From: a bacterium
GTDB taxonomy: Bacteria > Zhuqueibacterota > Zhuqueibacteria > Zhuqueibacterales > Zhuqueibacteraceae
Direction of reading: 5' to 3'
NCBI GenBank assembly: GCA_044869275.1
Contig: JBIOXB010000075.1
Coordinates: forward strand, 13,120-77,119
Length of the DNA stretch: 64,000 nt
Numbering within the stretch: position 1 is the stretch's first letter; each line of letters opens with the position of its first letter. Shown here piece by piece: positions 2,689-44,951 of this stretch. Both the position numbers and the translations under genes were made by a program. The notes under the pieces are model-generated. The model made no database searches, had not been told where the DNA came from, and was given only the letters and a program-made list of their open reading frames with translations.

Positions 2689-2750
2689 AGCCGTCTGCCG
2701 GGACACAAGCCCGGGTTTCCTGCCCAACCTCCATCCCCCCGGCAAAAAGC

Positions 2751-4448: not shown

Positions 4449-4526
4449 GGTACTTCAAACTCGTGATCATGTGGAAATATTCTTGTCAAACAGGCCTCCT
4501 GCGGCCTCGAGATGGTGATGATGTTC

Positions 4527-30499: not shown

Positions 30500-32629
30500 T
30501 TAAGGATGTGCAATTACCATCAATGTTTTGGCCCGCTTGATGGCGCACTGCATCGCCATTTGCAAATTCTCCGGATCGAGCGCGGCAAAGCTTTCGTCGA
30601 GAATGATCAAGTCGGCGTTTTGCAGCAGCGCGCGCGCCATGTACAGCCGGCTTTTTTCGCCATGTGATAGCTGCCAGCCGGTTTCACCCACCATTTGCAT
30701 GAGCCCGGCAGGCATGCGTTGCAACAATTCGCCCAGACCGAGCTCATGGCAAAGCATTTCGGCTTCTTCCAAATCTTCCGGTGAGGCTGGCCAGCGCCGG
30801 CCCATGAGCAAGTTGAACGCAAAGGTACCGGTCAGCACGTGGTTCTCGTGAAACTGCGGCGCGGAGACGATGCGCCGTCGCCAGCCCTCAGAGCCAAGCG
30901 TTTGCCAATCAAGGCCGTGCAACAACAGCAGGCCGGTATTGGGTTGGCGCAAACCGGTAAGAATCGAAGCGAGCGTCGATTTGCCGCCGCCGGAAGGACC
31001 TTGCAATAAAATGCGCTCGCCGCGCGAAATCTGAAAATCGTAGCTCTCTAAAACCGGCTTGCTATTGTCGTGATAGCGGAAAAACAGATCTTTCGCATTC
31101 ACCAATATCTCCGGAGCTTTTGGGCTTGCGCCATCGACGGTGAGAAGGGCGGCAAAAGTTTGTTTGGCGTAGGAGCGGGAAGCAGATTGCAGAAGAACGT
31201 TGAGCTGTCGCCACGCTACGACAGCGCCGGTGAAATAGGCGAGACTCTCGGCGATTTTGTGAAAAGCGCGGTAGGCGAGCAGGATGCCGCCCAGCCCGAC
31301 AGCCAACAGCGCCGGCGAAGTTTGGCCCGCAATGAAACTGGGCGCGAGCCCTGCCAACCCAACAATAAACCAGCCGCGTGAGGCAAACCCGATGGGAATA
31401 ACGCCGGTTTGATCCATCGTCTTGGTGTGCTCGAAATAACTCTCAAGTTCTTGGTCATCGGCATCATGCCAGCGACCGCGGCCTTCCTGAACGATACGGG
31501 TGCGATGGCCGACCATGCGCTCCACCAAATTGTTAGTCAGGTGGAGACAAGAATTCGTCCAGCCAACGCGCACGTGCAGGAAACGCCAACCCAACACCAC
31601 GGTCAGCGCCAGCCAAGCTGCAATCAACAACAGGTGAATAACACTGGCAGGACCTTGCGTTAAGACCACCGCTGCCAGGATCAGCTCGATGATGCCGAGC
31701 AAGCTGATGAAGCCGCCATTCAATGAAAAAGTTTCCAGGACCTCGGCTTGCGCAACGCGGCCGAAAAGTTGTCCCGCGCCTTGATGGCGAATCTCATCCG
31801 GATGCAGTTGCAAAGCGCCGTGCAGCAGCTTTTGTTTGATGAGCGCGCCGAAGCCGGTAGCGGCCAGTCCCTCCAGCCATTTCGACAACATCCGAAAAGG
31901 AATGAGCGTCAATAAAATGAGTGCCCACGCCAGCATCCAACCCCAATCGAGCCGGCCTTGCAACGCGCCTTTGCCAATCAGCCACCAAGAGATAATCCAC
32001 AGGAAGTAATAAACTACATAGGAGACTAGGAAGAACGAAAACCGGCTTGGCAGTTTGGCCGCGGCTGCATGCTTCCAAATGCTCTGCGTGAGCGGCAAGC
32101 GAATCAGCCAGCAACTGCCGATCCAGGCGTCGCTGAGCCGCTCGCGCAAGATGGCTGTACGCGCTTTGGTTTGGTGATGCTTCGCCACGCCGGCTTCGCC
32201 GAGCAATTGCTCGACTTCCGGCAACAATGGCGCTTCGATGGGTTCGCAAATCAATGCACGAATTTTTTCACTTGGCAGGCGATATACGAGGCGGTCCGAG
32301 CCGAGAATGGCGATCTTGCTGCGGCTTCGTCCGAGCAATACCAAGAGATAAGTTTTATTTTCGCAGGAAACACGGAGCAAAGCCGGCGCGGCGCGGTCGA
32401 GCAATTTCTCAACTTCGATGTAGTTGCTAAAAGTCGGTTCGGCTTCCAATCCCAGATTGCTGGCGGTGGTTTCGAGCCAGCGCGAAAATTTCTGACGATC
32501 ATCAGCCCAACCTTCGGGCATTGCCGGGATCTCGATTGGCTTTGCCGCAAGCCCATATCGCCGCGCCAGCTGCGCCAGGGCTTCATCCGCGCTCGCAAGG
32601 GGCCAGAGGTGTTTTTCGAGATTGATCAT
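30500..32629 (-). CDS. ABC exporter (degenerate C39-like N-terminus + TMD + NBD), likely partner subunit of the adjacent peptidase-containing transporter
   Basis: GPSGGGKS, degenerate signature LSHGE, ILDES, IAHP; TM helices; N-terminal domain lacks the QxxxxDCG motif. Confidence 0.85.
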   Translation of the reverse strand: MINLEKHLWPLASADEALAQLARRYGLAAKPIEIPAMPEGWADDRQKFSRWLETTASNLGLEAEPTFSNYIEVEKLLDRAAPALLRVSCENKTYLLVLLGRSRSKIAILGSDRLVYRLPSEKIRALICEPIEAPLLPEVEQLLGEAGVAKHHQTKARTAILRERLSDAWIGSCWLIRLPLTQSIWKHAAAAKLPSRFSFFLVSYVVYYFLWIISWWLIGKGALQGRLDWGWMLAWALILLTLIPFRMLSKWLEGLAATGFGALIKQKLLHGALQLHPDEIRHQGAGQLFGRVAQAEVLETFSLNGGFISLLGIIELILAAVVLTQGPASVIHLLLIAAWLALTVVLGWRFLHVRVGWTNSCLHLTNNLVERMVGHRTRIVQEGRGRWHDADDQELESYFEHTKTMDQTGVIPIGFASRGWFIVGLAGLAPSFIAGQTSPALLAVGLGGILLAYRAFHKIAESLAYFTGAVVAWRQLNVLLQSASRSYAKQTFAALLTVDGASPKAPEILVNAKDLFFRYHDNSKPVLESYDFQISRGERILLQGPSGGGKSTLASILTGLRQPNTGLLLLHGLDWQTLGSEGWRRRIVSAPQFHENHVLTGTFAFNLLMGRRWPASPEDLEEAEMLCHELGLGELLQRMPAGLMQMVGETGWQLSHGEKSRLYMARALLQNADLIILDESFAALDPENLQMAMQCAIKRAKTLMVIAHP

Positions 32630-32714
32630 GCAGAGCGGTTTTTTTGACAGGATTTTCAGGATGCACAGGATTACAAACTTGTTTTTCGAAAAAATCAAGG
32701 TTCACTAATTTTTT

Positions 32715-35426
32715 TCATTCAATGGCTGGTTGTGTTCCCAGCCAAACTTTTCGCCAGCGCTGGCTCGACCAGAGTTTCTCTCGCACGGCATTTTCCGCTT
32801 CCAATAATTGGCGGTAGCGCGAATCGGCGCGTTTGGCTAATTCCATGGGAATGCCGTCTTCGATCACTTGGCCGTTTTCAATAACCGACACGCGGTCGAA
32901 TTCCAAAGTCTCGCCGACGTCGTGCGTGATGCAAAGCAGCGTCGCGTTCTTCCACAACTCGCGGCAACGCGCCAGCAGCGTGCGGCGTTGCTGGCGATCC
33001 AACCCGCGAAACGGTTCGTCGAGTATCGCCAGCCGCGCGTTGCCGCGCAGCATAGCGCGACCGAGGCGCACGCGCTGTCCTTCGCCGCCGGAAACCAAAC
33101 GGCCGCCTTCGCCGAGCGGCGTTTGCAAACCCTCCGGCAATTTTTGCAGAACGCCAATAAGCTCCGCTTGCTCGATAACCATTCCGAGCGCAGCCGCATG
33201 TTGATTTTCGTTGCCGTAGTGCAAATTGTCAAACAGCGAGCGATTCCACAAATGCACCGCCGGATCGGCCCACGCGGTTTCCTGGCGCAATTGATCGAGC
33301 CGCTCACCGGCAAGAGCTTCGCCATCCACTAAAACTTTTCCGGCCGCCGGGCGATGCCATCCTAAGAAAACTCCGACTAAACTCGATTTGCCCGCGCCGG
33401 AAGGTCCGACAATCGCCGTATGGCTTCCAGAGGTAATCGTGAAATCGATGTCCTGCAGAATCGTGTGGCCTGCCACGCGCACGCTCACTTGCTGCAGCGC
33501 GAGCGCCACGCCATGAGTTTTTTCCTTGTGTATTTGTGTTGATGGAGAAGTCGAGGCGGTCTCACCTTCCTCAGGCGCGCCCAGCGGTTCGAGCAGGCGC
33601 AGGATGATATTGCGATGCGCCGGATATTGTTGCATGACCTGCGCCACGCCTTGGCCGAGCACCGGCAGATTCAGCGTCCAATACGCCATCAGCAGCACCC
33701 AATTGACTTCCGCGGTTCTGGCGAGATAGCTGAACAAAATCCAGGCGGCGAGGGCATATCCCGAGATCGCCAAAAGGCCATCGAGCATGGCGAGCATGCG
33801 ATGGCGGCTCAGGCTGGAGCGCGCCCATTCCACCAACAGACCCTCATGCTCGGTCCGCACCGCGCGTTCCGCACCATGGCTGCGAATGGGCACGAGCCCG
33901 AGCAATGCATCGAGATAAAAACGTCCGAGCGCGCCGCTGTGGGTTTGCAGGCGCGAATCTTTTTCCATCAACAACGGCAGCGTCATTAAGGGAAGCGCAA
34001 TCACCAAAGCCGCGGCAAGAAAGGCAAGCGGCGCGCTGGGCGGATCGATCCAAGCGATGCCGGCGGCCGTCAGCAGCAGCTCGAAGATCGCTCGCAAAAG
34101 GTTCGCGTAGATGTTAGGCATCTCGCTCAAGTGGTACACCACATGACTGCGTTGCACCATATCCGAAATGGGGCGGCTTTGAAAATAGCGATCCGCAAGC
34201 CGCGGGATTTTTTTCAAGAATGCCATGCGCAGCCGCAATTCCAGGCGACGGCCAAAGCGCCAATAATTGGAGATATTGGGAACTTGCAGCAGCAATAGGG
34301 CGAGCGCAAAAATGAGCAAAATCACCATCGCACCGGCGCGTTGGCTGGGCAGGCTAAGCACCTCCCAAACTTCCATAAGGCTGCGCAGAACCAACGCTTC
34401 GAGAATGAATGCCACTGCCGTGGCAAACAGCGCCGCGATCATGAGCGCCGGCGTTTTCCAGCCATCTTGAAAAATGAGACGAAAGAGCTCGCGATCCGGA
34501 CGGAGGGGCGCTTCTTCGAGCGCGGCGGCCAGCTCCGGCGAAAGCGTTTTATTCTGCGCCGGCGTCGCAGCGTCGCCTGGAGCGGCATCCACACCATTGT
34601 GAGGCAATGGCCGTAAGGCTCGCACCAAAACAGCGCCGCGCAAGAGCAGTTGTTCCGCCGACGCGCCTGCGGAAGGCGAGGGTCGAACCGACCAGTAGGC
34701 GTTGGGAATGGCGCGATTTTCTGAGGAAGACTCCTGTACTGATTTCTCGAAAAAACGTTCGAGCACATGCCCGGCTTGCGGTCCGGCTTTGATGCCATCC
34801 GAACGAATCAGAGCATCGACCATGCGGGTCGCGGCATCCAGCGCAGCGAGCGAATGCCAGCTTGTGTCGACAAGTGCAGCGTCGATTATACCGCGAGACC
34901 GTCTTGGTGCGAGGCCCAAGTTGGCCAAGCGCCGTTGCAGCGGATAGATGAATTCCTCCGAGTCCGCCCATTCTCGCCACCCCGCCGCTGAGACCGCCAT
35001 CGTATGCACATAAAGCTCATTTAGAAAAAAATGCGTTGAAGGCCAGCGCCGCCCGGTGCCGGGATCCATGATTTGGAGCACACCCCCGTGCCGGCGCCAG
35101 GCAACGACAAAGTGCGTGGCGCCATCGGCTTGGCGCACCACGACGATGGCTGGCAAGGCGTTCGCCTCGGAAAGCAGCAGATGATCGACGGGAATCATGA
35201 TTTGATCCGCGTCCAAGCCGAGCTGGCGCGCGATCTCTTCCATGGTGTCAATCGAAGTGCCGTCGACGTCGGTTTGGCAGGCTTCGCGCAGACGACCATA
35301 ACTGACGCGAATGCCGAATCCCTCGAGCAAACATTTGAGCGCCGCCGGCCCGCAATCCATCGCCGAAGTCTGCACCACTTCGGGGGCGAAATAACGACGC
35401 GAGATTTTTGAAGCACTGACTTTCAT
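32715..35426 (-). CDS. Peptidase C39-containing ABC transporter (PCAT)
   Basis: QTSAMDCGPAAL (catalytic Cys), THFVV (His), MDPG (Asp); TMD; GPSGAGKS, VSGGE, ILDEP, ITHD. Confidence 0.92.
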   Translation of the reverse strand: MKVSASKISRRYFAPEVVQTSAMDCGPAALKCLLEGFGIRVSYGRLREACQTDVDGTSIDTMEEIARQLGLDADQIMIPVDHLLLSEANALPAIVVVRQADGATHFVVAWRRHGGVLQIMDPGTGRRWPSTHFFLNELYVHTMAVSAAGWREWADSEEFIYPLQRRLANLGLAPRRSRGIIDAALVDTSWHSLAALDAATRMVDALIRSDGIKAGPQAGHVLERFFEKSVQESSSENRAIPNAYWSVRPSPSAGASAEQLLLRGAVLVRALRPLPHNGVDAAPGDAATPAQNKTLSPELAAALEEAPLRPDRELFRLIFQDGWKTPALMIAALFATAVAFILEALVLRSLMEVWEVLSLPSQRAGAMVILLIFALALLLLQVPNISNYWRFGRRLELRLRMAFLKKIPRLADRYFQSRPISDMVQRSHVVYHLSEMPNIYANLLRAIFELLLTAAGIAWIDPPSAPLAFLAAALVIALPLMTLPLLMEKDSRLQTHSGALGRFYLDALLGLVPIRSHGAERAVRTEHEGLLVEWARSSLSRHRMLAMLDGLLAISGYALAAWILFSYLARTAEVNWVLLMAYWTLNLPVLGQGVAQVMQQYPAHRNIILRLLEPLGAPEEGETASTSPSTQIHKEKTHGVALALQQVSVRVAGHTILQDIDFTITSGSHTAIVGPSGAGKSSLVGVFLGWHRPAAGKVLVDGEALAGERLDQLRQETAWADPAVHLWNRSLFDNLHYGNENQHAAALGMVIEQAELIGVLQKLPEGLQTPLGEGGRLVSGGEGQRVRLGRAMLRGNARLAILDEPFRGLDRQQRRTLLARCRELWKNATLLCITHDVGETLEFDRVSVIENGQVIEDGIPMELAKRADSRYRQLLEAENAVREKLWSSQRWRKVWLGTQPAIE

Positions 35427-35465
35427 GATAATTTTTTGGGCAGGGTAACAGGATTGACAGACAAA

Positions 35466-36638
35466 CTAAAACTGAACCGTCTTTTTCGATGACTTCACCA
35501 ACTCGCTCACCGTTTGCAAAACCAGCGAAGCCGGCGAAACACGATCCACTTCGATTTCGATGGCACCGGTAAGGCCGTGTTGCAAGAGGAATGTTGGATT
35601 TTGCTGCGGCTGCACGCTGCACTCGACGCGGAATTTGCCGTCACGCGGCTCGCTGGCGACGTTGCCGACTTGCGCCGCGAGAATGCCGAATTGCGTCCAT
35701 GGGTAAGCATCCAAACGCATGCTGGCCGGTTGTCCAGAGCGAATGCGTCCCAAGGCCCGACCGACGGCAAAATTCGCCACGATGCGAACCTCGCCCGAGG
35801 GCACGATCGTCGCCAGCTTGTCGCCGGGTTTTACGACTCCGCCAACCTGCAGCTCTGTGGTCTCACCGATGCGGCCGCTGATCGGTGCGTGAATAAATTG
35901 CTCTTGAATCTCGAGCTGCTCGCGCGCAATCGTTTTTTCCGTGGTGGCAATTTGACCTTCGAACAGAGCCACTTCACGATTCAAGCGCTCGAGCTTGGCT
36001 TCCTGATCGCTCGTTTTGGTGCCCTGCTCGTTTTGCATTCGGCTGGCCGTCAATCGCAGCGCTTCGGCGGCCGCACGCGATCGGGTAGCATTGGCCTCAG
36101 CGCGGCGAAATTCCACTTCCGAAATCAGCCCGCGTTTAAAAAGCTCCCGCATGCGCTCCGCTTCCTTTTCGGCCAATTGGGCGGAAGTCTCGGCTTCGAG
36201 CTGGCGCGCACTGGCCTCTTTCACAGCTGTCGGCGCAGCTTGGAGCTCCTGCTCATACGCTCGCGCCTGCGCGCTGACTTCATTGCGCAACGCCGCGAGC
36301 TGATTCTGCAATCCGGCCAGATGAGATCTTTGCTCTTCCAAATGCAGCTTGTGCTCTTCGGTATCCAATTCCACGAGAACGTCGCCGGCAGTTACTTCCG
36401 CGCCGAGCTGCAAGCGCGTTTGCACAACACGGCCGCCGAACTGCACGGCCACCGGATGCACCGCGCTTTCCACTTCCAACCGCGCGGTCTCACTGGTTTC
36501 ATATAACGCAACGCGCGCCAGCAACAGCCACAGTGTCCAGACGATTAACAGCGCCAGCACCGTCAAAACCGCGAGATTGGCGCGGCGAAAACCATCCAAT
36601 TCAAGTGAACGAAGTGACCGAGAGAAAGATATAGACAT
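35466..36638 (-). CDS. HlyD family secretion/membrane fusion protein
   Basis: N-terminal TM, GGRVV...G..V..GDVL, long coiled coil, IHAPISG, YPWTQFG. Confidence 0.9.
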   Translation of the reverse strand: MSISFSRSLRSLELDGFRRANLAVLTVLALLIVWTLWLLLARVALYETSETARLEVESAVHPVAVQFGGRVVQTRLQLGAEVTAGDVLVELDTEEHKLHLEEQRSHLAGLQNQLAALRNEVSAQARAYEQELQAAPTAVKEASARQLEAETSAQLAEKEAERMRELFKRGLISEVEFRRAEANATRSRAAAEALRLTASRMQNEQGTKTSDQEAKLERLNREVALFEGQIATTEKTIAREQLEIQEQFIHAPISGRIGETTELQVGGVVKPGDKLATIVPSGEVRIVANFAVGRALGRIRSGQPASMRLDAYPWTQFGILAAQVGNVASEPRDGKFRVECSVQPQQNPTFLLQHGLTGAIEIEVDRVSPASLVLQTVSELVKSSKKTVQF

Positions 36639-36767
36639 GGCGAAACCTACAAAATTGGGTGGTCATAATTTCCGGAAGGATTCCATAAATTAACTTAAAA
36701 GTCAACTACTTTTATGACTTGCTCCTTTGGTGGTGAAAACTTCCGCTATTTTTTGATTCCGCCTTCT

Positions 36768-38147
36768 TTACATGAACTCCAATTCCGGATTGCCAAGCAG
36801 CGTGATACTCTCCGTATTTCTTATGATCTGCGTATCTCCCTCGAGCACAGCAACCACGGCGGATTGAATAATTTCAAAGCATCTTTCTTTTGGTAAACCG
36901 ATGATCGCAAGAGGGAAAGACCCGATAATGACCAGTAGGGGAGTGCGAACATAGTGTTTCGCGGCATTCCGCGCTTCGAACACCAGGGCGTCACCGAAGG
37001 CTTCCTCCAAGCCGGGCCGAACGACGCCTTCGAACCACGCGCAAGAATTGCATCCCCAGCGTTTGTAAACGACGATATGCGCTTTGCCTTTTGGAACCTC
37101 AATTCCCTCCTGAATCACTGACCGCACCAATTTGTGCGCTCCGTAGCTCAAGCGCCGGTTCGTGATCTGGCACGCTATCCGCACCGCTGCCCAGGTCAAA
37201 CCGAAAGCGATTCCCGCCGTGCCCGCTAAGCTGGCGAGCTGCGCGTTGCTCGATTTTGTTGCCGTCAGAGAGGCCGCCATAGCGACCATTGCGGAGAATC
37301 CCACCATTAAACAGGGCATGCAAAGAATACGTTGCTTAAGGAGACGGCTCAACAAGAAAGCATGCGCACCCATCGCAACAAAGATGCCCACGAGGATGGC
37401 AAAATGGCCGAGGGTATGCAACGTGCCGGCCCATAGCACGGAGTACAAACCGGTTCCCAGCCATGCCAAAGGCAATCCACCCAACAAGCTGGTGGCGCGG
37501 TCACAGGAAACGCAGTTTTTGGCCAACAGCGCTGACCATAGGGAGCCGCCAAAACAAACCGCCAAAGCCGTCAATGCCAACCATGATGGTTTCTGTCTCG
37601 CCGATAACATCCACGGTAAATGGTCAAAAGTTGCCATGAGCGTTGCCACAGCCACGATTCCCACACTCAGACCAAAGACCAGCCGGGGGCCGGCGCGTCG
37701 CAGGTCTCTTAACTCCTTCAGCGCCTGCTGCTCAGCATCGTGATCGCGGCTCAGCACCACCACCTCTCCGGTCCAGCGTTGGCAGAATTGTTCGCGGGAA
37801 AGAGTGACCAATCCAACGGCGGGATCAGCGATGAATGCTTCGCGATCGTCAACCTGATGCAGAACGACGAAACATTCGCGCGCGTTTTCCTTGAAGACCA
37901 TGATTGCAGGTAGAGCCACTGATGGGAGCTCCTCGTAAGGGCCTTCCATGGCCACTGCACTGAGACCGTACTGGCGGGCTGTCCCCAGCAGCAGCGCTAG
38001 CTCTTCGATTTTATCGGCATTGCCGAGAAGACGCATCTCTTGAAGGCCGATTGGACTGTGAAGATGCTGTGCGACAATGGCCAGGGCCGCCGCGCCATTT
38101 TCTTGGGGCCGCCCTTGCCGAACGCAAAGAAGATTTTGCTCAATCAA
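36768..38147 (-). CDS. Fusion: inactive C39-like domain + VKOR-like membrane domain + thioredoxin-like domain
   Basis: RQGRPQENGAAAL (Cys->Asn), CFVVL (His lost), IADP, F.QRWTG; VKOR-like CVSC and CMPC pairs in the TM region; C-terminal WGCNSC; TTG start after AAGGAG. Confidence 0.8.
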   Translation of the reverse strand: MIEQNLLCVRQGRPQENGAAALAIVAQHLHSPIGLQEMRLLGNADKIEELALLLGTARQYGLSAVAMEGPYEELPSVALPAIMVFKENARECFVVLHQVDDREAFIADPAVGLVTLSREQFCQRWTGEVVVLSRDHDAEQQALKELRDLRRAGPRLVFGLSVGIVAVATLMATFDHLPWMLSARQKPSWLALTALAVCFGGSLWSALLAKNCVSCDRATSLLGGLPLAWLGTGLYSVLWAGTLHTLGHFAILVGIFVAMGAHAFLLSRLLKQRILCMPCLMVGFSAMVAMAASLTATKSSNAQLASLAGTAGIAFGLTWAAVRIACQITNRRLSYGAHKLVRSVIQEGIEVPKGKAHIVVYKRWGCNSCAWFEGVVRPGLEEAFGDALVFEARNAAKHYVRTPLLVIIGSFPLAIIGLPKERCFEIIQSAVVAVLEGDTQIIRNTESITLLGNPELEFM

Positions 38148-38184
38148 GATGCAAATGCTCCTTTTCTTCTTCTTTCATACGGCG

Positions 38185-38219
38185 GGCGGGCAGTCCCTAA
38201 TCAATCGGAGCTGCCCGCC
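38185..38219 (-). other. Stem-loop 3' of precursor peptide 3
   Basis: ggcgggcag (38185-38193) / ctgcccgcc (38211-38219); no U-tract on the coding strand. Confidence 0.65.
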
Positions 38220-38236
38220 ACCGAAGACCCTGTAGA

Positions 38237-38293
38237 TTAGCGCCAGCAACCTCGGGGGCACGGACCGGCCTTGATGTTGGTTTTTACCTTCAT
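38237..38293 (-). CDS. Micro-precursor peptide 3, MKVKTNIKAG-PCPRGCWR (18 aa)
   Basis: Manual translation; AAGGAG RBS 7 nt upstream; leader shared with two neighbouring ORFs; below the ORF-track size cutoff. Confidence 0.85.
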   Translation of the reverse strand: MKVKTNIKAGPCPRGCWR

Positions 38294-38375
38294 GACGTTC
38301 TCCTTATGAGGGGTTGGGTTAACAGCTTTGTGGTTTGTTTTGTTTTACTTCTATTCTTTCGACTTCCACTTGTTT

Positions 38376-38402
38376 GATGCAACTCGTATTGAAATTCCAT
38401 AA
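38376..38402 (-). promoter_or_regulatory. Putative ECF-sigma promoter TTATGGAA-N14-GCATC for peptide 3
   Basis: Bipartite motif with identical spacing about 80 nt upstream of each precursor ATG. Confidence 0.7.
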
Positions 38403-38429
38403 GACCTTTTTCGTCGTTTGGGAGATCGC

Positions 38430-38458
38430 GACGAGTCCCGTTGACTTCGAGACTCGTC
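38430..38458 (-). other. Stem-loop 3' of precursor peptide 2
   Basis: gacgagtc (38430-38437) / gactcgtc (38451-38458). Confidence 0.65.
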
Positions 38459-38470
38459 AGGAGCTGGCGC

Positions 38471-38527
38471 CTAGTTCATCGCCAGACCTTTGGGCTTGCC
38501 GGCTTTCACGTTCGTTTTTACCTTCAT
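38471..38527 (-). CDS. Micro-precursor peptide 2, MKVKTNVKAG-KPKGLAMN (18 aa)
   Basis: Manual translation; AAGGAG RBS 7 nt upstream; shared leader. Confidence 0.85.
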   Translation of the reverse strand: MKVKTNVKAGKPKGLAMN

Positions 38528-38604
38528 GGCTTTCTCCTTCGAGAGTTTGGGGTTAATTGCTTCTGGTTTGGTTTCAGTTTTTTGTTTTCAACTTCCACAT
38601 ACTT

Positions 38605-38631
38605 GATGCAGCTTGTATCGAAATTCCATAA
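38605..38631 (-). promoter_or_regulatory. Putative ECF-sigma promoter TTATGGAA-N14-GCATC for peptide 2
   Basis: Exact motif copy with the same 14-nt spacer. Confidence 0.7.
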
Positions 38632-38649
38632 AATTTTCTTGTCTGTTTT

Positions 38650-38694
38650 TGAGAGCGCGCGGAGCGACCTTTTTGACCTCCAGCCGCGCTCTCA
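38650..38694 (-). other. Stem-loop 3' of precursor peptide 1
   Basis: tgagagcgcg (38650-38659) / cgcgctctca (38685-38694). Confidence 0.65.
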
Positions 38695-38712
38695 GCAGCG
38701 CCGGTGTCTTGC

Positions 38713-38775
38713 TTAGCGAATGTTCTGCGAAATGCACTTGTGGCAGCCGGCTTTCACGTTCGTTTTCACCTTCAT
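38713..38775 (-). CDS. Micro-precursor peptide 1, MKVKTNVKAG-CHKCISQNIR (20 aa)
   Basis: Manual translation; GAGGTG RBS; shared leader. Confidence 0.85.
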   Translation of the reverse strand: MKVKTNVKAGCHKCISQNIR

Positions 38776-38859
38776 GACTCACCTCGTTGGTTTGGGTTTG
38801 AACTGCTATCTTTGTGAGTTGATTCTCTTCTGCCTTCATTTCCTGCTTTCACTCACAGA

Positions 38860-38886
38860 GATGCACCCACCACAAAAATTCCACAA
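38860..38886 (-). promoter_or_regulatory. Putative ECF-sigma promoter TTGTGGAA-N14-GCATC for peptide 1
   Basis: One-mismatch copy of the motif, same spacing. Confidence 0.68.
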
Positions 38887-38910
38887 AAGTTCTCTAAAAA
38901 TTTTGCAGGC

Positions 38911-38941
38911 TTGACAAAACAGGCAAATTGTGCAATATTAT
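38911..38941 (+). promoter_or_regulatory. Putative sigma70 promoter for the ECF/anti-sigma/CHAT operon
   Basis: TTGACA (38911-38916), 17 nt, then AATATT preceded by TG. Confidence 0.5.
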
Positions 38942-39115
38942 ACCGCTTTCAGATTCCCACCGGGTTTAATGAAAACGAGGTTTTGAGCTTTTTCGCCTAT
39001 TTTGTCTTTAGCCCGTAAAGCATGCGGCTAATCCCTGCTTTCATTTGCCACATTTTCTAACAGAAGCATTTAGCCACGCTACGCGTGATGATTCGAAGAT
39101 TCAGGAGTTACAAAA

Positions 39116-39706
39116 TTGCCCCTTATAATTGATCGAAAAGCTGAAGTCGCACTTTCAGATATAGAATTGATTGCGCGGTACAGGGAATCCCGAGATGTGG
39201 CTTACCCGGGCGTGCTCTTCCAGCGTTATGCCCACTTGGTTCTGGGTATTTGCTTGAAGTATCTCAAGAACGAAGAGGATAGTAAAGACGCGGCCATGGA
39301 ACTGTTCGAGAATCTCACCGAAATGCTGGTGAAACACGAGATCACCAATTTCAAAAGCTGGTTGCATACCACCACGAAAAATCATTGCCTGATGAAGCTG
39401 CGTAAGCCGGAAGCCAAAGCCATCAGACGAAATTTGGAAGGCGTGGATGAAAGTTTATTTATGGAAAATCCCGAGTCCGAGCATCTTATAGTAGAAGAAA
39501 TGCGTGATTTACAAATCCGCCATTTGGGAACGGCCTTACCACGGTTGAACGAAGAACAGAGGGTTTGCATCGAATTGTTTTATTTGCAGGGAAAAAGCTA
39601 TCAAGAGGTGGCGGAAACCACCGGATATAGTTTGAATCAAGTCAAGAGCCATATCCAAAACGGAAAGAGAAACTTGAAGAACTTTTTGACGAATGTGAAG
39701 GAATAA
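39116..39706 (+). CDS. ECF sigma-70 family factor
   Basis: Region 2 (LFQRY...DAAMELF...FKSWL.TTTKNHCL) and region 4 (LNEEQRVCIELFY...SYQEVAE.TG...VKSHIQNGKRNL); TTG start after AGGAG. Confidence 0.93.
   Translation: MPLIIDRKAEVALSDIELIARYRESRDVAYPGVLFQRYAHLVLGICLKYLKNEEDSKDAAMELFENLTEMLVKHEITNFKSWLHTTTKNHCLMKLRKPEAKAIRRNLEGVDESLFMENPESEHLIVEEMRDLQIRHLGTALPRLNEEQRVCIELFYLQGKSYQEVAETTGYSLNQVKSHIQNGKRNLKNFLTNVKE
39459..39485 (+). promoter_or_regulatory. Intragenic copy of the TTATGGAA-N14-GCATC motif inside the ECF sigma gene
   Basis: ttatggaa-aatcccgagtccga-gcatc, encoding FMENPESEHL; oriented toward the anti-sigma gene. Confidence 0.6.
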
Positions 39707-39710
39707 AGCG

Positions 39711-40595
39711 ATGCTGGTTGCATTTGAGAATGTGAACGCCGCGGACGAAAGAACGACTCCGTGTTTGAGTTTCGAACAAATGGTGGGTTATGAGGAAAAA
39801 ACCTTATCCCCGGCGCAATATGCTGCAGTTGATGAGCACTTGACGCAGTGTGAGCTTTGCAGCGAGGCCATGGAAGGCTTTGCCGCTTTTCCGGATAAAG
39901 CCCGGCGGTCGTTCTTGGTGCAAGAGCTGCACGAGGAGATTCAGAGAAGATCCCTGCCGGAAGTTGCACCGGAATCTGAGCCTACATGGTCCGAACGACT
40001 CGCAGGAGTGGTGCGATCGGCAAAAAGCTGGCTTGCCGGAACGATGAAAAATTCCCACTCGATTTTGATCACACCGCGATACGGTGTGAAGCTGGCTTAT
40101 GCTATGGCAACGACTTTCTTGGTCGGCGTAGTTTCGGTAATTTATCTGAATCGCGAGACGCCGGGCGAGAAGTTGTTTGCTTCATACTTTCAGCCTTATC
40201 CCAACCTCGCCTCCTCCGTGCGCGGCGAGCAAGACGCAAGCAAATTGCAGGAGGCTTTGCAATCCTATGATGCGCAAGATTTCGAGGCCGCGCTGCAGGA
40301 GCTGCGAGACATTCTCGCCTCCCAGCCCAACAACGTCATGGCGAATTTTTATGCCGGTATTTCTTATTTGAATCTCAAAGAAACTGAACGAGCGATTGCC
40401 AGTCTGCAAAAAGTGCTTGCGCTCAACGATGCGAAGTTTTCAGCACCGGCGCTTTGGTATCTGGCGCTCGCTTACCTGCAGCAAGATCAATTGGTGCAAG
40501 CACGTGCCACTCTGGAAGGCATTACCGCCAATCAACACCTGTACCAAGCGCAAGCCATAAAGCTGCTGGAGCAACTTCGTTCCGGTGGCCAGTGA
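39711..40595 (+). CDS. Zinc-finger (HxxxCxxC) anti-sigma factor with TM helix and C-terminal TPRs
   Basis: DEHLTQCELC, TM AYAMATTFLVGVVSVIYL, TPR motifs FYAGISYL and WYLALAYL; 4 nt after the sigma stop. Confidence 0.85.
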   Translation: MLVAFENVNAADERTTPCLSFEQMVGYEEKTLSPAQYAAVDEHLTQCELCSEAMEGFAAFPDKARRSFLVQELHEEIQRRSLPEVAPESEPTWSERLAGVVRSAKSWLAGTMKNSHSILITPRYGVKLAYAMATTFLVGVVSVIYLNRETPGEKLFASYFQPYPNLASSVRGEQDASKLQEALQSYDAQDFEAALQELRDILASQPNNVMANFYAGISYLNLKETERAIASLQKVLALNDAKFSAPALWYLALAYLQQDQLVQARATLEGITANQHLYQAQAIKLLEQLRSGGQ

Positions 40596-40675
40596 GTGGT
40601 TAACAATCGTCCGTTTCGTACACGCTAAACATTGAAAACGGGCTACTTCAGACACACCCGCCGCGGAGGTCTACC

Positions 40676-43600
40676 ATGAATCCCAGCCGAGTTATATTGG
40701 CGGGCTTTGCGGTTCTCCTTGCCTGTTGCGCCCAAAAAGAAGAGGCCGCGCGAGAAAAGGCTGCGGCTTATTCTTCACCCTCCGACCACGATCTCACCCG
40801 AGCGGAAAACTTTGCCAAGGAAGCCAAATACGATAGCGCGATAACGGCTTTAGAAAGGGCGCGTGCCGGAGATGAAGCCGCAGGAAATTGGGAAGGCGTG
40901 GTGCAGGCGGACAATAAGATCGGCGAATATCTGACGGAAAAAGGTTTGTATGATCAGGCACTCGAGCTGCTGAAGAAGACTTTGACGCTGGGCCAGAGCA
41001 AAATTGGTGAGCAGCACCGTTTGGTCGCGGAAACATATCATAACCTGGGTTACACCAACTGGCGACAGGGCAAACTCGACGAGGCACTGGCGCATCACAA
41101 GAGAGCCCTGGCGCTTCGCTTGGCGGTTCTCGGCGAGCGCCATGCCGAAGTCGGACAAAGTTATCATTTTCTTGGTGAGGTTTATCAGTCGCAAGGGGAT
41201 CTTGATCGCGCCATCGATTTTCACGAATTGGGTCTGTCCATCCGCAAGGCGGTGCTGGGAGAGCGGGATGTCGCCGTGGCCGAAAGTTACAATGCGACGG
41301 CCGGCGATTACTGGTTCAAAGGCGATTATGACAAAGCGCTCGACTATTGCCATAAAGCTTTGGCGATTTGGCGCAACACCGTCGGCGAGCAGCATCCTAA
41401 GACCGCGAATTCCTACGGTAACCTCGCCATTCTTTATGCCACCAAGGGCGATCATGTGCAGGCGCTGGAATTTTTCCATAAAGAGCTGGCCATTCGTCTA
41501 GCGATCTTTGGCGAGCAGCATCCTCGCGTGGCCAACACTTATAGCAACATCGGACTCACCCACGAAATGCTCGGCGAGTATGACCAGGCCCTGGTTTATA
41601 CCGAAAAAGCCCTCGTGGGCATTGCGGCGCGCATGGGAGAGAAGCATCCTTTGCTCGCGAACACTTATAATAATAAGGGAAAGATTCTTCATCACCTCCG
41701 CCATGACGATCAAGCGATCGCGGCGCATCACAAGGCTTTGTCGATTCTGTTGCCAACCGTCGGCGAAAAACATCCTTTTGTGGCTCAGGCTTATAACCAT
41801 ATCGGTGAAGCGCATATCGGCAGGCGGGAGTATGCGCCAGCGCTCGCCTCGTTCAACAAAGCAGCGTCGGTCATGCAAATATTGTATGGCAAGCACCATC
41901 CCGAGCTGGCGCAGGTTTACAATAATCTAGGCAAGACGCACCTCAAGCTGCGCCAGTATGATTTCGCGCTGCAGGATTTTCAGCAATCGATTAGCGCGAA
42001 TATTCCGACTTTGCTCGATGACGATATCTATGGCGAGCCGCCATTGCTCAATGTGCTCTCGGAGAATGATTTATTGCAGTCGCTGAGCGGCAAGGCGCAG
42101 GCTTTCGCCGAGCGCCACGACCATCAGTCGCGAGATCCGCGCGATCTCAAAGCCGCTGTCGGGGCCTATCAGCACGCCTCGCGCTTGATCGACAAAATGC
42201 GCAGCAGCTATAAAGCCGAAGGCTCCAAATTGTTTTTGTCGCGGAACGCCCGGGATATTTTTGACAAGGCGATTCAAAGCACGAGGCGCCTACACGATCC
42301 CGCCGATCGTGAAACCGCGTTCTTATTCGCTGAAAAGAGTAAGGCGGGCATTATTCTGGAGGCGCTTACCGAGGCCGACGCCAAGGAGTATGCCGGCATC
42401 CACGATAGCTTGCTGGCGAAAGAGCATCAACTGCGCATCGATCTGGCATTTTATGACCGCAAACTGAGCGAAGCGCAGATGAATCCCCAAAGCGCGGATA
42501 GCGCCAAAACCGCGCAATGGCGTGACGAGGAGTTTCAGCTCAAGCAAGATTATGAGGCCCTGCTGGAACGTTTCGAGCGCGAACATCCGCATTACTACAA
42601 TCTCAAATATCGCCTCAACACCGTCACCGTGGCGCAGGTGAGAAGTGAGATTTTGAGCGAGAATACTGCGTTGGTGGAATATTTCACCGGCAATGATTCG
42701 CTGTTTATATTTACGATCACTGTGAATGCTTTTGACTTAACTGCCACGGCCAAAGACACTGGGTTTGAAACGGATATTCAGGCGTTGCGCCAGGGCATCA
42801 TTGAGCAGGACTTCGGCAAATACACGCGGTCCGCGCATCGGCTTTATCAAACCTTGCTCGCGCCAGTGGCGGGCAAGCTCGCTGCAACCAATCTGATCAT
42901 CATTCCCGACGCGGCGCTCAGCACAGTTCCGTTTGAAGCGTTGTTGGCGCATCCCGTCGCTGCCGAAGGCGGCTTGCAAGATTTTGCCAGCCTTCCGTTT
43001 GTTTTGAACGATCACTCCTTGAGCTATGCCTATTCGGCAACGCTATTGCAGCAGACGATCAAAAGGAAACAGGCGACGACGAGCCGCGACTACCTGGCCT
43101 TTGCGCCGGTCTTCGCGGAGGGTCTGCCCGTGGGCACGCGCGGCGGGGATCTTTTCAAAGAAAATTTTGCCGCCGGCTCGTCCCAGGTTGCTGCCACAGC
43201 TGCTGTTTCAGCTACACGCATGCGCGGCTATTTGCCTGCCTCCAAAATGGAAGTCACGAATGTGTTTGGCGAGTTTAACGCGCGCTATAATTTTTTTGAG
43301 CGTTGGTTTGGCACGAAGTCGCAGATTTATTTGGAGCGCGAAGCAAAAGAAGAGAGACTCAAGTCGCGCGATTTAAGCGCCTATCGTTTCCTCCACTTTG
43401 CCACACATGGTCTCGTCAACGAGAAAAACCCCAAGCTCTCCGGCTTGGTTTTTGCTCGGGAAGACTCGAGTTCAAAAGAAGACGGCGTTTTGCATTTGAG
43501 CGAGATATATAATTTGAATCTGAACGCCGATCTCGTGGTATTGAGCGCGTGCGAGACCGGGCTCGGACAAGTGGTCAAAGGGGAGGGTATCATCGGTCTG

Positions 43601-43822
43601 ACCCGAGGCTTTCTCTATGCGGGTGCATCCAATCTGCTCGTCTCATTGTGGCAGGTGAGTGATGCAACCACGGCGGATTTGATGGTGGATTTTTATGACA
43701 AGATGCTCGAGGGCATGAGCAAGCCCGAAGCTTTGCGCGAAGCCAAATTGCAAATGATTCGCCGCCATCCCGAATATGCCAAGCCGTATTACTGGGCGCC
43801 GTTTGTTTTGGTGGGAAGATGA
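40676..43822 (+). CDS. Lipoprotein with TPR array and CHAT (caspase-like) protease domain
   Basis: Signal/lipobox VLLAC; many GE.HP.VA.TY.N.G TPRs; IIPD.AL..VPFEAL, HFATHG (His), VLSACETG (Cys), SLWQV, YWAPF. Confidence 0.92.
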   Translation: MNPSRVILAGFAVLLACCAQKEEAAREKAAAYSSPSDHDLTRAENFAKEAKYDSAITALERARAGDEAAGNWEGVVQADNKIGEYLTEKGLYDQALELLKKTLTLGQSKIGEQHRLVAETYHNLGYTNWRQGKLDEALAHHKRALALRLAVLGERHAEVGQSYHFLGEVYQSQGDLDRAIDFHELGLSIRKAVLGERDVAVAESYNATAGDYWFKGDYDKALDYCHKALAIWRNTVGEQHPKTANSYGNLAILYATKGDHVQALEFFHKELAIRLAIFGEQHPRVANTYSNIGLTHEMLGEYDQALVYTEKALVGIAARMGEKHPLLANTYNNKGKILHHLRHDDQAIAAHHKALSILLPTVGEKHPFVAQAYNHIGEAHIGRREYAPALASFNKAASVMQILYGKHHPELAQVYNNLGKTHLKLRQYDFALQDFQQSISANIPTLLDDDIYGEPPLLNVLSENDLLQSLSGKAQAFAERHDHQSRDPRDLKAAVGAYQHASRLIDKMRSSYKAEGSKLFLSRNARDIFDKAIQSTRRLHDPADRETAFLFAEKSKAGIILEALTEADAKEYAGIHDSLLAKEHQLRIDLAFYDRKLSEAQMNPQSADSAKTAQWRDEEFQLKQDYEALLERFEREHPHYYNLKYRLNTVTVAQVRSEILSENTALVEYFTGNDSLFIFTITVNAFDLTATAKDTGFETDIQALRQGIIEQDFGKYTRSAHRLYQTLLAPVAGKLAATNLIIIPDAALSTVPFEALLAHPVAAEGGLQDFASLPFVLNDHSLSYAYSATLLQQTIKRKQATTSRDYLAFAPVFAEGLPVGTRGGDLFKENFAAGSSQVAATAAVSATRMRGYLPASKMEVTNVFGEFNARYNFFERWFGTKSQIYLEREAKEERLKSRDLSAYRFLHFATHGLVNEKNPKLSGLVFAREDSSSKEDGVLHLSEIYNLNLNADLVVLSACETGLGQVVKGEGIIGLTRGFLYAGASNLLVSLWQVSDATTADLMVDFYDKMLEGMSKPEALREAKLQMIRRHPEYAKPYYWAPFVLVGR

Positions 43823-43874: not shown

Positions 43875-44951
43875 TCAATCCACCCAGTCCGCAATGAACA
43901 CGTTCGTTTGCCCCGGCTTGGCACCATTGCGGTTGGAACAAAACACCAGCTTCTTGCCGTCATGCGTGAACATGGGGAACCCATCAAATTCGCCGTGAAA
44001 AGTAACCTGCTCCATTTCGCTGCCGTCGATATTGATCAGATGCAAATCAAAATTACGGCGGCGCGGGCTGCTGGTGTCGCTGACATTAGAACAAAAAATG
44101 ATCTGCTTGCCATTGGGATGAAAAAAGGGCGCGAAGTTAGCCGCGCCATTGTTGGTGATTTGGCGCCGGTTGGAGCCGTCGGCGTTCATCACGAACAATT
44201 CCACCTGGCTCGGGCGCACGAGATCTTCTTGCAGCAATTCCTGATAATCCGCCAATTCCTCCGGCGTTTGCGGATGATAAGCGCGATAGACGATCATCGC
44301 TCCGTCGGGCGAATAAAATGCCCCGCCGTCATAGCCCGCTTCGTGTGTCAGGCGGAGCACCTCGCTGCCGTCGATATTCATGGAGTAAAGCTCCAAATCG
44401 CCGTCGCGCAGCGAAGTAAAAACGATGCGCTTGCCGTCAGGTGAGATCGTGGCTTCGGCGTCATAGCGCGGCGTGGTGGTGAGCTGGCGCAGCTCCGAGC
44501 CGTCATCTTTGGCGATGAAAATATCATAACTCGGATAAACCGCCCAAACGTATCCGCGCGAAAAGGTCGGCGGCGGTGGGCAGGAGTCCGCGCCGAGATG
44601 GGTGGAGGAAAAAAGAATATGTTCGCCGTCCGCAAAAAAATACCCGCACGTCGTCCGGCCTTTGCCCGTGCTGGCCAGGTGGACCGCGCTGCCGTCGACA
44701 TTCATCGTATAGATTTGATCACAGCCAAACGGCGGCCGCGTGGACTGAAAGATGATGCGCTGTTCATCGAAGCTCAAATATGCTTCGGCGGAATTTTCGC
44801 CCTCGCGCGTCAACTGTCGCAACGCTCTGAAGTGCGTTTCTTGCGGCAGAATATGGCTGGACTCGTCTTTCACTTTCGGCTTTTGATCACTGCAGGCCAT
44901 CATGAAAAATACCGGCATCCAAAGCATGCGCATCTGGTTTACTCCCATCAT
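43875..44951 (-). CDS. TolB-like/PD40 beta-propeller lipoprotein
   Basis: FFMMAC lipobox-like; repeats SPDGKRIVFTS, YSMNIDGS..RLT. Start uncertain. Confidence 0.85.
   Translation of the reverse strand: MMGVNQMRMLWMPVFFMMACSDQKPKVKDESSHILPQETHFRALRQLTREGENSAEAYLSFDEQRIIFQSTRPPFGCDQIYTMNVDGSAVHLASTGKGRTTCGYFFADGEHILFSSTHLGADSCPPPPTFSRGYVWAVYPSYDIFIAKDDGSELRQLTTTPRYDAEATISPDGKRIVFTSLRDGDLELYSMNIDGSEVLRLTHEAGYDGGAFYSPDGAMIVYRAYHPQTPEELADYQELLQEDLVRPSQVELFVMNADGSNRRQITNNGAANFAPFFHPNGKQIIFCSNVSDTSSPRRRNFDLHLINIDGSEMEQVTFHGEFDGFPMFTHDGKKLVFCSNRNGAKPGQTNVFIADWVD

Follow-up and report, generated by a model that had tools for sequence, protein, structure and literature searches.

How are three genes for peptides of only 18-20 amino acids controlled, and what are their products for? 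This question is raised by positions 30500-43822 of a 64,000-nucleotide stretch, hereafter the window, of contig JBIOXB010000075.1 from a bacterium of the phylum Zhuqueibacterota (assembly GCA_044869275.1). On the minus strand, three micro-peptide genes with a shared leader are followed by the gene of a putative disulfide enzyme and by those of an exporter, comprising a HlyD-type adaptor, a peptidase-containing ATP-binding cassette (ABC) transporter (PCAT) and a second ABC subunit. On the plus strand, divergently, a triad of genes encodes a sigma factor of the extracytoplasmic function (ECF) type, a membrane-spanning anti-sigma with tetratricopeptide repeats (TPRs) and a protease that joins TPRs to a caspase-like CHAT domain. 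By listing open reading frames (ORFs) and scanning them with Pfam and NCBIfam models, we confirmed every gene named in a preliminary description of the locus, which had gone on to propose a quorum-sensing-like loop in which the TPRs sense the exported peptides. Our data point instead to two independent modules joined by promoter capture, and we give the whole mechanism set out below a probability of roughly 0.55.

The promoter motif and the sigma factor loci

A bipartite motif had been described upstream of each peptide gene and inside the sigma gene, and exact matches bear this out. TGGAATTT-N10-TGCAT is found without mismatch upstream of all three peptide genes, which are arranged as follows (loci and genomes are designated below by L and G numbers, respectively).

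38860..38884, minus strand: ECF-type motif GTGGAATTTTTGTGGTGGGTGCATC, about 84 nt before the start of micro-peptide 1
38713..38775, minus strand: micro-peptide 1, MKVKTNVKAGCHKCISQNIR, with a GGAG-type ribosome-binding site
38605..38629, minus strand: ECF-type motif ATGGAATTTCGATACAAGCTGCATC, 77 nt before the start of micro-peptide 2
38471..38527, minus strand: micro-peptide 2, MKVKTNVKAGKPKGLAMN, with a GGAG-type ribosome-binding site and a downstream hairpin (z -2.55)
38376..38400, minus strand: ECF-type motif ATGGAATTTCAATACGAGTTGCATC, 82 nt before the start of micro-peptide 3
38237..38293, minus strand: micro-peptide 3, MKVKTNIKAGPCPRGCWR, with a GGAG-type ribosome-binding site and a downstream hairpin (z -2.91)
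39461..39485, plus strand, sense: intragenic motif copy ATGGAAAATCCCGAGTCCGAGCATC, inside the sigma gene and upstream of the anti-sigma and CHAT genes

Searched with up to 3 mismatches, the narrower pattern TGGAATTT-N10-TGCAT occurred 32 times for 25 expected, with the intragenic copy at chance level, and was superseded by a refined motif. In this form, ATGGAAW-N13-GCATC, the motif occurs 3 times in the window, compared to 0.07 expected from shuffled sequences, and 7 times in the 6.67-Mb genome. First, we observed that the motif accompanies ECF/anti-sigma loci of other genomes. TTATGGAAW-N13-GCATC lies in other triads on the strand opposite to the ECF gene, with the same 13-nt spacing as in the three peptide promoters. 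By allowing a spacer of 11-13 nt between a seven-base ATGGAWW-type half and GCATC, we found the motif within 400 nt of the ECF start at 17 of the 29 ECF/anti-sigma loci compared, all outside the window; its orientation was divergent in each of the 17, and none of the 29 had it on the ECF strand. Second, the motif agrees with a published promoter prediction. According to the accessible part of its description, the ECF255 group of Bacteroidetes has a predicted promoter with TATGGAT at -35 and GCATCT at -10, and a secreted protein encoded at position -1 (PMC7826278). TATGGAAW-N13-GCATC(T), as compared with that description, fits the prediction, so that we read the motif as an ECF-type promoter belonging to a related group of sigma factors. 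A sigma-54 reading was rejected by eye: the consensus of such promoters is TGGCAC-N5-TTGC, and GG and GC are 18 nt apart here versus 11 nt. Given the divergent motif at 17/29 loci and the match to the ECF255 promoter, the earlier proposal that the sigma factor induces the peptides holds up well, and we consider such control likely on the basis of these comparisons.

The intragenic copy, ATGGAAAATCCCGAGTCCGAGCATC, matches the cross-genome consensus exactly, and equivalent copies lie within the ECF genes of L026, L183, L194, L217, L218 and L220. From within the sigma gene, it could serve the anti-sigma and CHAT genes as a sigma-dependent promoter. Another candidate precedes the ECF operon itself:

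38911..38939, plus strand: sigma-70-like promoter candidate TTGACA-17-AATATT (TG-extended)

Taken alone, this candidate is no better than chance (1 versus 1.1 expected in the region), and TTGCAT-N17-TATAAT-like sequences, read by eye, lie at the same place in other triads.

We then considered what the motif controls elsewhere. It drives large proteins with type IX secretion tails in L182, L187, L191 and L217. In L213, a metagenome triad, a motif with a 12-nt spacer stands ahead of a PCAT operon (303-6241, minus strand), which encodes the PCAT, a 229-aa membrane protein, a MauE-like and a thioredoxin-like protein, two Cys-rich peptides with double-glycine (GG) leaders (55 and 53 aa), a 443-aa membrane protein and an ABC ATPase (fragment). 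A C39 gene starts divergently in L209, L211 and L220, and the L213-type variant of the motif is found in L209, L211, L212 and L220. Since L213 thus places another peptide family, unrelated to the first and likewise accompanied by a PCAT and a thiol-disulfide accessory, under a like promoter, the coupling in the window is unlikely to be accidental.

These comparisons bear on the view that the two arms are mere neighbours and the motif a general regulatory site unrelated to the sigma factor. The arms do lie apart almost everywhere, and beyond the locus the genome has 4 more exact copies of the motif, a number close to chance expectation. However, the motif is tied to ECF/anti-sigma loci in fixed orientation and spacing (17/29), it matches the promoter predicted for an ECF group in the published description cited above, and it stands before each peptide gene separately in two genomes, that of the window and that of L026. 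Peptide genes of other phyla also lack it: among 162 upstream regions of such genes elsewhere, just 2 contain it, and both belong to L153, which carries the same two peptides as L026, so that L153 and L026 were counted as one. We therefore hold this view to be very improbable.

The micro-peptide family and its exporter

The three ORFs with a shared leader singled out by the preliminary description are real, conserved genes that are tied to a PCAT exporter. Each of them is followed by a hairpin, and two of the three hairpins are more stable than those of shuffled sequences. In L026, which belongs to another genus of the same bacterial family, micro-peptide 3 has a relative, MKVKTNIKAGPRWRWW, with a similar hairpin downstream, and micro-peptide 1 is identical although 6 codons differ, all of them synonymously and one by a change from TCG to AGT. 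The proteins flanking the peptides are 52-84% identical between the window and L026. The identity of micro-peptide 1 despite synonymous changes is therefore direct evidence of translation and purifying selection. A weak likeness between micro-peptide 1 and the N-terminal end of ribosomal protein L36 (TIGR01022, E 0.0097, 16 bits versus a cut-off of 22.7) is probably due to chance.

Within the window genome, the degenerate pattern M-K-x-K-T-N-x-K-A-G occurs at the three sites and nowhere else, and G014, the genome of L026, has 8 matches with up to one mismatch. By searching one genome per species (185,579 species), we found the leader pattern in at least 127 stretches, where about 0.5 would be expected by chance according to our own arithmetic. 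These stretches contain at least 169 distinct ORFs, nearly all with a GGAG-type ribosome-binding site upstream. Among the matches listed, the family is mostly from Acidobacteriota (Blastocatellia, Pyrinomonadaceae, Bryobacteraceae, Terriglobia and Thermoanaerobaculia), and it is also present in Pirellulaceae, Chloroflexota, Myxococcota, methanotrophic and other Proteobacteria, Verrucomicrobiota and Acidimicrobiia. ORFs this short are usually missed by gene callers; no Pfam or NCBIfam model reached its cut-off on the MKxKTNxKAG peptides scanned, and four leader strings were absent from the searchable full-text literature (8.4 million texts). We have little doubt that the genes and the peptide family are real.

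Most members are 14-25 aa long and consist of an invariant 10-aa head ending in KAG and a hypervariable tail. Some are multi-repeat precursors of up to 140 aa, built from short cores interspersed with NHNQTxxRGLKVK[ST]xVKAG; such precursors were seen at L109:9050-9373, L099:10001-10420, L104, L043, L055, L066 and L089, and L043, L099, L104 and L109 have in common an upstream conserved element of their own and a hairpin. At the methanotroph loci L057:10001, L065:9183, L102 and L111:10001-10192 (in Methyloglobulus, Crenothrix, Methylobacter and Methylococcaceae), the cores are rich in His, Arg and Gly, e.g. ...GHRRNPAEHGPNHT, and metal binding by them is a mere thought.

The genes that lie downstream of the peptide genes in the window are the following.

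36768..38147, minus strand: accessory protein, 459 aa, with a C39-like domain (72.2 bits), a four-helix membrane bundle and a thioredoxin-like domain
35466..36638, minus strand: HlyD-type periplasmic adaptor (HlyD_3 51 bits, HlyD_D23 36.6 bits)
32715..35426, minus strand: PCAT, 903 aa (Peptidase_C39, PF03412, 72.9 bits; ABC_membrane, PF00664, 31.6 bits; ABC_tran, PF00005, 81.5 bits)
30500..32698, minus strand: second ABC subunit (ABC_tran 78.3 bits), with a transmembrane and a nucleotide-binding domain and no recognisable peptidase domain

Domain scores and the catalytic Cys25 support the HlyD adaptor, the active PCAT and the second ABC subunit as they had been named. All three PCAT scores are above their cut-offs, and the nucleophile Cys25 is present in 'AMDCGPAAL' (QTSAMDCGPAAL). 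In a structure search, the C39 folds matched PCAT1, LahT and ComA. The true start of the second ABC subunit is probably a Met 23 codons in, and no Pfam match was found in its N-terminal 199 aa.

To see how far this association extends, we examined neighbours at 73 non-redundant flanked peptide loci (of 78, L039-L116; window excluded) with 605 ORFs (90 aa or longer) lying up to 6 kb from a peptide gene; the counts are lower bounds, many contigs being short and many loci ending at contig edges. A PCAT lies within 6 kb of the peptide gene at 25/73 loci, a second ABC subunit at 27/73 and HlyD at 13/73. The PCAT and the second ABC subunit of the window fall into neighbour clusters of 23 and 22 loci, respectively, and a HlyD ortholog, 76% identical, directly adjoins the peptide genes in L026. 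The typical unit elsewhere is peptide(s)-HlyD-PCAT-ABC with nothing in between, and no recurrent maturase was found among the neighbours. An ECF sigma like that of the window lies within 6 kb at 4/73 loci and a CHAT domain at 0/73. At 7/73 loci (L043, L053, L075, L099, L100, L104 and L109), the peptide gene adjoins an ECF gene (PF07638) and a Ser/Thr kinase-TPR gene of about 950 aa; it is found downstream, on the shared strand, in five of these loci and runs divergently to the ECF gene in L053. Among further neighbours scanned individually were peptidases of the S8 and S9 families, a sigma-54 activator and several signalling proteins with TPRs; an adenylate cyclase-AAA-TPR and an NB-ARC-TPR protein were seen in single cases.

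What would the exporter release? We predict that the C39 domain of the PCAT cuts after the invariant Ala-Gly (residues 9-10). The cores left in the window would be 8-10 aa each, two of them with Cys pairs (CHKC and CPRGC) and the third of another type, KPKGLAMN. Here and in L026, the cores are cationic and rich in Trp/Arg or Cys (PCPRGCWR, PRWRWW), a character that suits antimicrobial peptides of the microcin or class II bacteriocin kind. If so, the triad would sense envelope damage or competitors, and there would be no self-signalling. PCAT/HlyD export is typical of Gram-negative microcins, and the sister triad of L213 controls a PCAT operon whose two GG-leader peptides of 53-55 aa are hydrophobic and whose 443-aa membrane protein and ABC ATPase fragment might confer immunity. 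On the other hand, cores of 8-10 aa are shorter than any known unmodified bacteriocin, KPKGLAMN has no obvious antimicrobial character, and no immunity gene was found in the window. As a full explanation of the locus we rate this as unlikely; for the cores themselves, given L213 and their cationic, Trp/Arg-rich make-up, we lean slightly towards an antimicrobial role over signalling, which stays alive as a reading because the peptide family often has TPR-signalling neighbours.

The statement that neither an immunity gene nor a maturase is evident agrees with our ORF listing: besides the four large genes, positions 30500-38147 contain no ORF of at least 80 aa, hence no evident separate gene of either kind. 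Among the genes of 27300-49207, no histidine kinase with response regulator was found beside the peptide and PCAT genes.

The accessory protein had been called a pseudo-C39/VKOR/thioredoxin fusion. The C39 part stands: the nucleophile position holds Asn in the window and Cys in none of 37 aligned full-length members of the family. Lacking this Cys, the domain can bind the leader and not cut it, and it would thus hold the leader; the C39-like domain of HlyB likewise binds without cutting, and 3zua, which we take to be that domain, was among the fold matches of the C39 domains. The rest of the protein has two invariant CxxC pairs in the membrane bundle and a third CxxC plus a cis-Pro in the thioredoxin-like domain, and C212, C215, H262, C276, C279, C366, C369 and P403 are invariant in an alignment of 74 sequences. 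For this part, the VKOR-thioredoxin assignment finds tentative support at the level of the fold, and no Pfam match backs it: PF07884 (VKOR) was not found in the protein even at E up to 10, nor was a thioredoxin match, and a weak Thioredoxin_2 match (E about 0.005-0.01) appeared in 3 of 15 homologs scanned, all stand-alone proteins of about 250 aa. A phmmer search of PDB sequences with the C-terminal part returned nothing useful. With AlphaFold models (pLDDT 93.4 for the whole protein in AF2, 88.6 for residues 150-459), the top Foldseek match of residues 150-459 was a Synechococcus VKOR-thioredoxin fusion (E 0.039, TM 0.42-0.49), followed by thioredoxins. VIA-align gave Z 14.1 for the same fusion (rmsd 9.6, 215 residues across both domains; next Z 10.3), a match near its stated limit for helical bundles. 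A language-model look-up, useful as a lead only, pointed to clusters with PF07884 VKOR, PF13462 Thioredoxin_4 and in one case PF03412 Peptidase_C39 (0.79-0.82). On these models, we accept a C39-like domain, a VKOR-like bundle and a thioredoxin-like domain as the architecture of the protein, as distinct from membership in those families.

An exhaustive profile-free search gave 811 relatives of the accessory protein at E<=0.001 and 37 at E<=1e-30, comprising about 40 full-length proteins and many of about 250 aa that match only residues ~185-435; an earlier impression from a word-indexed search (3 proteins), that the protein is nearly unique, was thereby rejected. The membrane/thioredoxin part was found at 0/73 other peptide loci. 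In L026 (G014:C361:1151-1895), two peptide genes (PRWRWW and CHKC cores) are followed directly by HlyD, and no full-length relative of the accessory protein was found in the 89%-complete genome G014.

The ECF/anti-sigma/TPR-CHAT triad and the proposed mechanism

The triad comprises three genes on the plus strand.

39116..39706, plus strand: ECF sigma with sigma2 and sigma4 regions (Sigma70_r2, PF04542, 35.1 bits; Sigma70_r4_2, PF08281, 48.2 bits)
39711..40595, plus strand: anti-sigma, 294 aa, with a cytoplasmic CHCC zinc finger, a transmembrane (TM) helix at ~128-147 and periplasmic C-terminal TPRs (TPR_16/TPR_19)
40676..43822, plus strand: TPR-CHAT (caspase-like) protease, 1048 aa (CHAT, PF12770, 231.6 bits; TPR_12 268.1 bits)

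Scans and alignments bear out their description as an ECF sigma, a zinc-binding anti-sigma (ZAS) with TM helix and TPRs, and a lipoprotein TPR-CHAT with intact His and Cys. TIGR02937 recognises the sigma factor with 83.5 bits versus a cut-off of 42.9. The zf-HC2 score of the anti-sigma (PF13490, 18.6 bits) is below the cut-off of 22.2; its H43-x3-C47-x2-C50 signature is that of ZAS proteins, and C18, H43, C47 and C50 are invariant in 12 orthologs. The same orthologs share F156, Y163, P164, N165, P168 and R171, which form a conserved segment, LF..YFxPYPN..P.VRG, directly after the TM helix. The TPR-CHAT protein reads as a lipoprotein, with a lipobox LLAC|C in its N-terminal 'AVLLACC'. Its catalytic His and Cys are invariant in 17/17 triad CHAT sequences, and H907, H911 and C959 in 12 homologs. 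A phmmer search of PDB sequences with the CHAT domain returned nothing useful.

Relatives of the anti-sigma at E<=1e-10 occur in 21 of 167 genomes of the window phylum. Among the genome loci surveyed (19 anti-sigma loci plus L026 and L038), the order ECF, anti-sigma, CHAT is kept in 13 and in L026; of the other seven, some end at contig edges and others have no CHAT or no clear ECF/anti-sigma match. In metagenomes, a search with the single anti-sigma protein found no relative, whereas an alignment query gave 16 loci, 11 of them with all three genes. Anti-sigma and TPR-CHAT are encoded separately here as in 24 other triads. Many triads have a CHAT protein that, in a single open frame (1125 aa in G037), matches that of the window in rotated order, with the catalytic half (853-1047) first, then the TPRs and then the N-terminal part of CHAT (701-812), which looks like a circular permutation; such proteins are encoded at L182:9006-12248, L183:2116-4947, L187:4609-7793, L213:7969-11425 and G037:C16:77056-80247. 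Elsewhere in the window genome, two tandem TPR-CHAT paralogs, 33-37% identical, lie at G000:C14:84855-90894 (L035), and no ECF or anti-sigma gene was found beside them by tblastn. Downstream of the triad, on the other strand, a PD40 beta-propeller protein and a 7TM-receptor HD hydrolase are encoded (43875-44951 and 46835-49207); nothing ties them to the cluster.

The distribution of the two arms differs. The leader pattern is present in 2/167 genomes of the phylum (that of the window and G014), compared to 21/167 for the anti-sigma, and MKxKTNxKAG genes occur at 1/37 other anti-sigma loci (21 genome and 16 metagenome loci), that is only in L026. The leader pattern is absent from four other genomes of the bacterial family; one of these, the 99%-complete G001, is of the same genus and also has no anti-sigma relative at E<=1e-10 and no relative of the accessory protein (G001 and G014 are flagged as unpublished). 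From the 2/167 against 21/167 genomes and from G001, the peptide/export arm looks imported into a lineage that bore the triad, and on this distribution the peptides and their exporter are probably an imported module.

We propose the following course of events. An envelope signal would activate the lipoprotein CHAT, which would cut the anti-sigma at or near its conserved juxtamembrane segment, by the logic of a split DdvA (an anti-sigma of Myxococcus xanthus fused to TPR-CHAT), and a site-2 protease would complete the release of the sigma factor. The window genome has M50 site-2 proteases at 4 loci. The sigma factor would then recognise TATGGAAW-N13-GCATC and transcribe the three peptide genes; the exporter would probably be transcribed by read-through of the peptide-gene hairpins, and the intragenic copy may raise anti-sigma and CHAT levels as feedback. 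The PCAT would remove the 10-aa leader after Ala-Gly and, together with the second ABC subunit and HlyD, expel the 8-10 aa cores, and the accessory protein would keep the leader bound and form disulfides in the two cores with Cys pairs (CHKC, CPRGC). Clipping of the anti-sigma by CHAT is plausible: 24 further loci keep the gene order, each of the two proteins faces the periplasm, and DdvA, in which they are fused, sets a precedent; judged by this analogy, we give the role of CHAT as site-1 protease slightly less than an even chance. A predicted complex of CHAT 300-1048 with anti-sigma 146-294 scored 0.02 for a mark of 0.32, which speaks neither way.

The loop as first proposed goes further: exported cores would re-enter the periplasm and bind the TPRs of CHAT or of the anti-sigma, CHAT would cut the anti-sigma, and the sigma factor would induce more peptide. 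Its sigma-to-peptide arm is supported by the motif comparisons, the cores are very short as in signalling peptides and no immunity gene is evident. Moreover, peptide-triggered ECF/anti-sigma feed-forward exists for microbisporicin, and peptide genes elsewhere have TPR signalling neighbours, e.g. kinase-TPR at 7/73 loci as a raw count. However, only 1/37 other triad loci has such peptides, CHAT is absent from the 73 other peptide loci, and other triads drive type IX secretion cargo, so that their input cannot be these peptides and the ancestral input must have been something else. The preliminary description had itself asked whether the export and ECF/CHAT arms co-occur, and the finding of both in only 2/167 genomes of the phylum largely goes against its loop. 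We thus find the full loop improbable and have little confidence in any feedback by the peptides. The same holds for a broader idea, a long shot in our eyes, in which MKxKTNxKAG peptides are exported signals read across phyla by TPR receptors of the periplasm or cytoplasm: anti-sigma-TPR and TPR-CHAT here, ECF-linked Ser/Thr kinase-TPR, cyclase-TPR and NB-ARC-TPR proteins elsewhere, with the caspase-like protease of the window, in place of a histidine kinase or RRNPP regulator, turning binding into sigma release.

Several observations weigh against two modules joined by promoter capture as we propose them. First, the ECF operon has no motif in front of itself (0/29), which is unusual for ECF sigmas, the exporter operon has none of its own, and the motif could be an operator for another regulator instead of a sigma promoter. 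Second, the -35 half of the intragenic copy encodes a conserved F-M-E tripeptide, and coding constraint may explain part of that match. Third, the 10-aa leader is much shorter than usual double-glycine leaders, which end in GG, GA or GS, its Ala-Gly cleavage being a prediction only, the VKOR likeness of the accessory protein lies in the fold only, and L026 has no C39-like/thioredoxin gene. Fourth, the synteny that speaks for coupling (HlyD, two peptide genes, ECF, anti-sigma, CHAT) comes from a single other locus, L026 (G014:C361); the relatives do not count as independent samples, contig edges cut off many loci, and ORF calling was crude. Finally, among the matches listed, the five sequencing runs that contain the locus are all DNA and none RNA.

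If the promoter-capture reading is true, an imported cassette gained one copy of a resident sigma factor's promoter per peptide gene, which would be a case of regulatory capture. A family of exported peptides of 14-25 aa, with precursors of up to 140 aa, would be widespread in soil phyla, and the triad would be a compact split DdvA with a defined promoter and outputs, tractable for the question of CHAT as a site-1 protease.

Comparison with known systems

The accessory protein appears to share with the Synechococcus VKOR-thioredoxin fusion (3KP9/4NV2) a four-helix membrane bundle followed by a thioredoxin-like domain with CxxC and cis-Pro; it has two membrane CxxC pairs where VKOR has a loop Cys pair and one CxxC. 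The cluster scores of 0.79-0.82 also liken it, as a lead only, to C39+VKOR+thioredoxin proteins of Bacteroidota. The exporter resembles NHLP/Nif11 cassettes in combining a C39+ABC transporter, a peptidase-less ABC paralog and a HlyD adaptor. Its proteins score far below the NHLM cut-offs (TIGR03796 175.4 versus 853.3 bits, TIGR03797 104.4 versus 709.4, TIGR03794 49.6 versus 156.2), and its 10-aa leader ending in Ala-Gly is unlike the PCAT/NHLM types: NHLP/Nif11 leaders are long, and other PCAT leaders are of the LSxxELxxIxGG type.

A TPR-CHAT protease linked to the control of an ECF-type sigma factor recalls the type III-E Craspase, in which Csx29 (TPR-CHAT) reportedly cleaves Csx30, which binds a sigma factor. 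Craspase is said to be cytoplasmic and RNA-guided, unlike the periplasmic CHAT here; the Csx29 model NF041237 gave 23.4 bits for a cut-off of 300, and no Cas family was found among 13 window proteins scanned.

The likeness to ECF255 lies in the promoter and is drawn from the published description only; the ECF255 anti-sigma is given there with TonB_C and carboxypeptidase-regulatory-like domains where ours has TPRs only, and CHAT is not mentioned in the accessible part of that description (PMC7826278). The same source, as far as accessible, reports for ECF54 of Actinobacteria a conserved CHAT-TPR neighbour thought to regulate the sigma factor (PMC7826278). As here, an ECF sigma is thus genomically linked to a TPR-CHAT; according to that account, ECF54 differs in having no anti-sigma, a GTATCAG/CTCC promoter, another phylum, and subtilase and carboxypeptidase-like partners.

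The concept of a peptide-driven loop is not new. MibX/MibW of the microbisporicin cluster, and likewise planosporicin, pair an ECF sigma and an anti-sigma with a peptide cluster whose production they control and whose exported product, in the published model, triggers sigma release in a feed-forward manner (PMC4973701). By the same account, those systems make lantibiotics in actinomycetes, have maturases and immunity transporters and lack a CHAT protease, and the feedback demonstrated there is unsupported here.

The closest parallel to the triad is DdvS/DdvA of Myxococcus xanthus, an ECF sigma and a TM anti-sigma with a periplasmic TPR-CHAT and a His-Cys dyad (PMC11506125). According to that work, the CHAT of DdvA is proposed to act as site-1 protease, cutting the juxtamembrane linker before RseP, and DdvA-like fusions are found only in Myxococcota and one Comamonas (PMC11506125). 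As far as DdvA is described there, a cytoplasmic CHCC domain, one TM helix and a TPR-CHAT with His-Cys in the periplasm are common to both systems. In contrast to the fused DdvA, our anti-sigma (294 aa) and TPR-CHAT (1048 aa) are encoded by two genes; with the TPR-CHAT a lipoprotein in its own right and only a small TPR domain left on the anti-sigma, one protein would cut the other in trans. The triad is also in another phylum, and its output would be exported peptides instead of the CBASS/CRISPR reported for DdvA. Set beside these systems, three things are new: a triad in which anti-sigma and CHAT are split and whose promoter is defined, the family of peptides, and the connection between the two.

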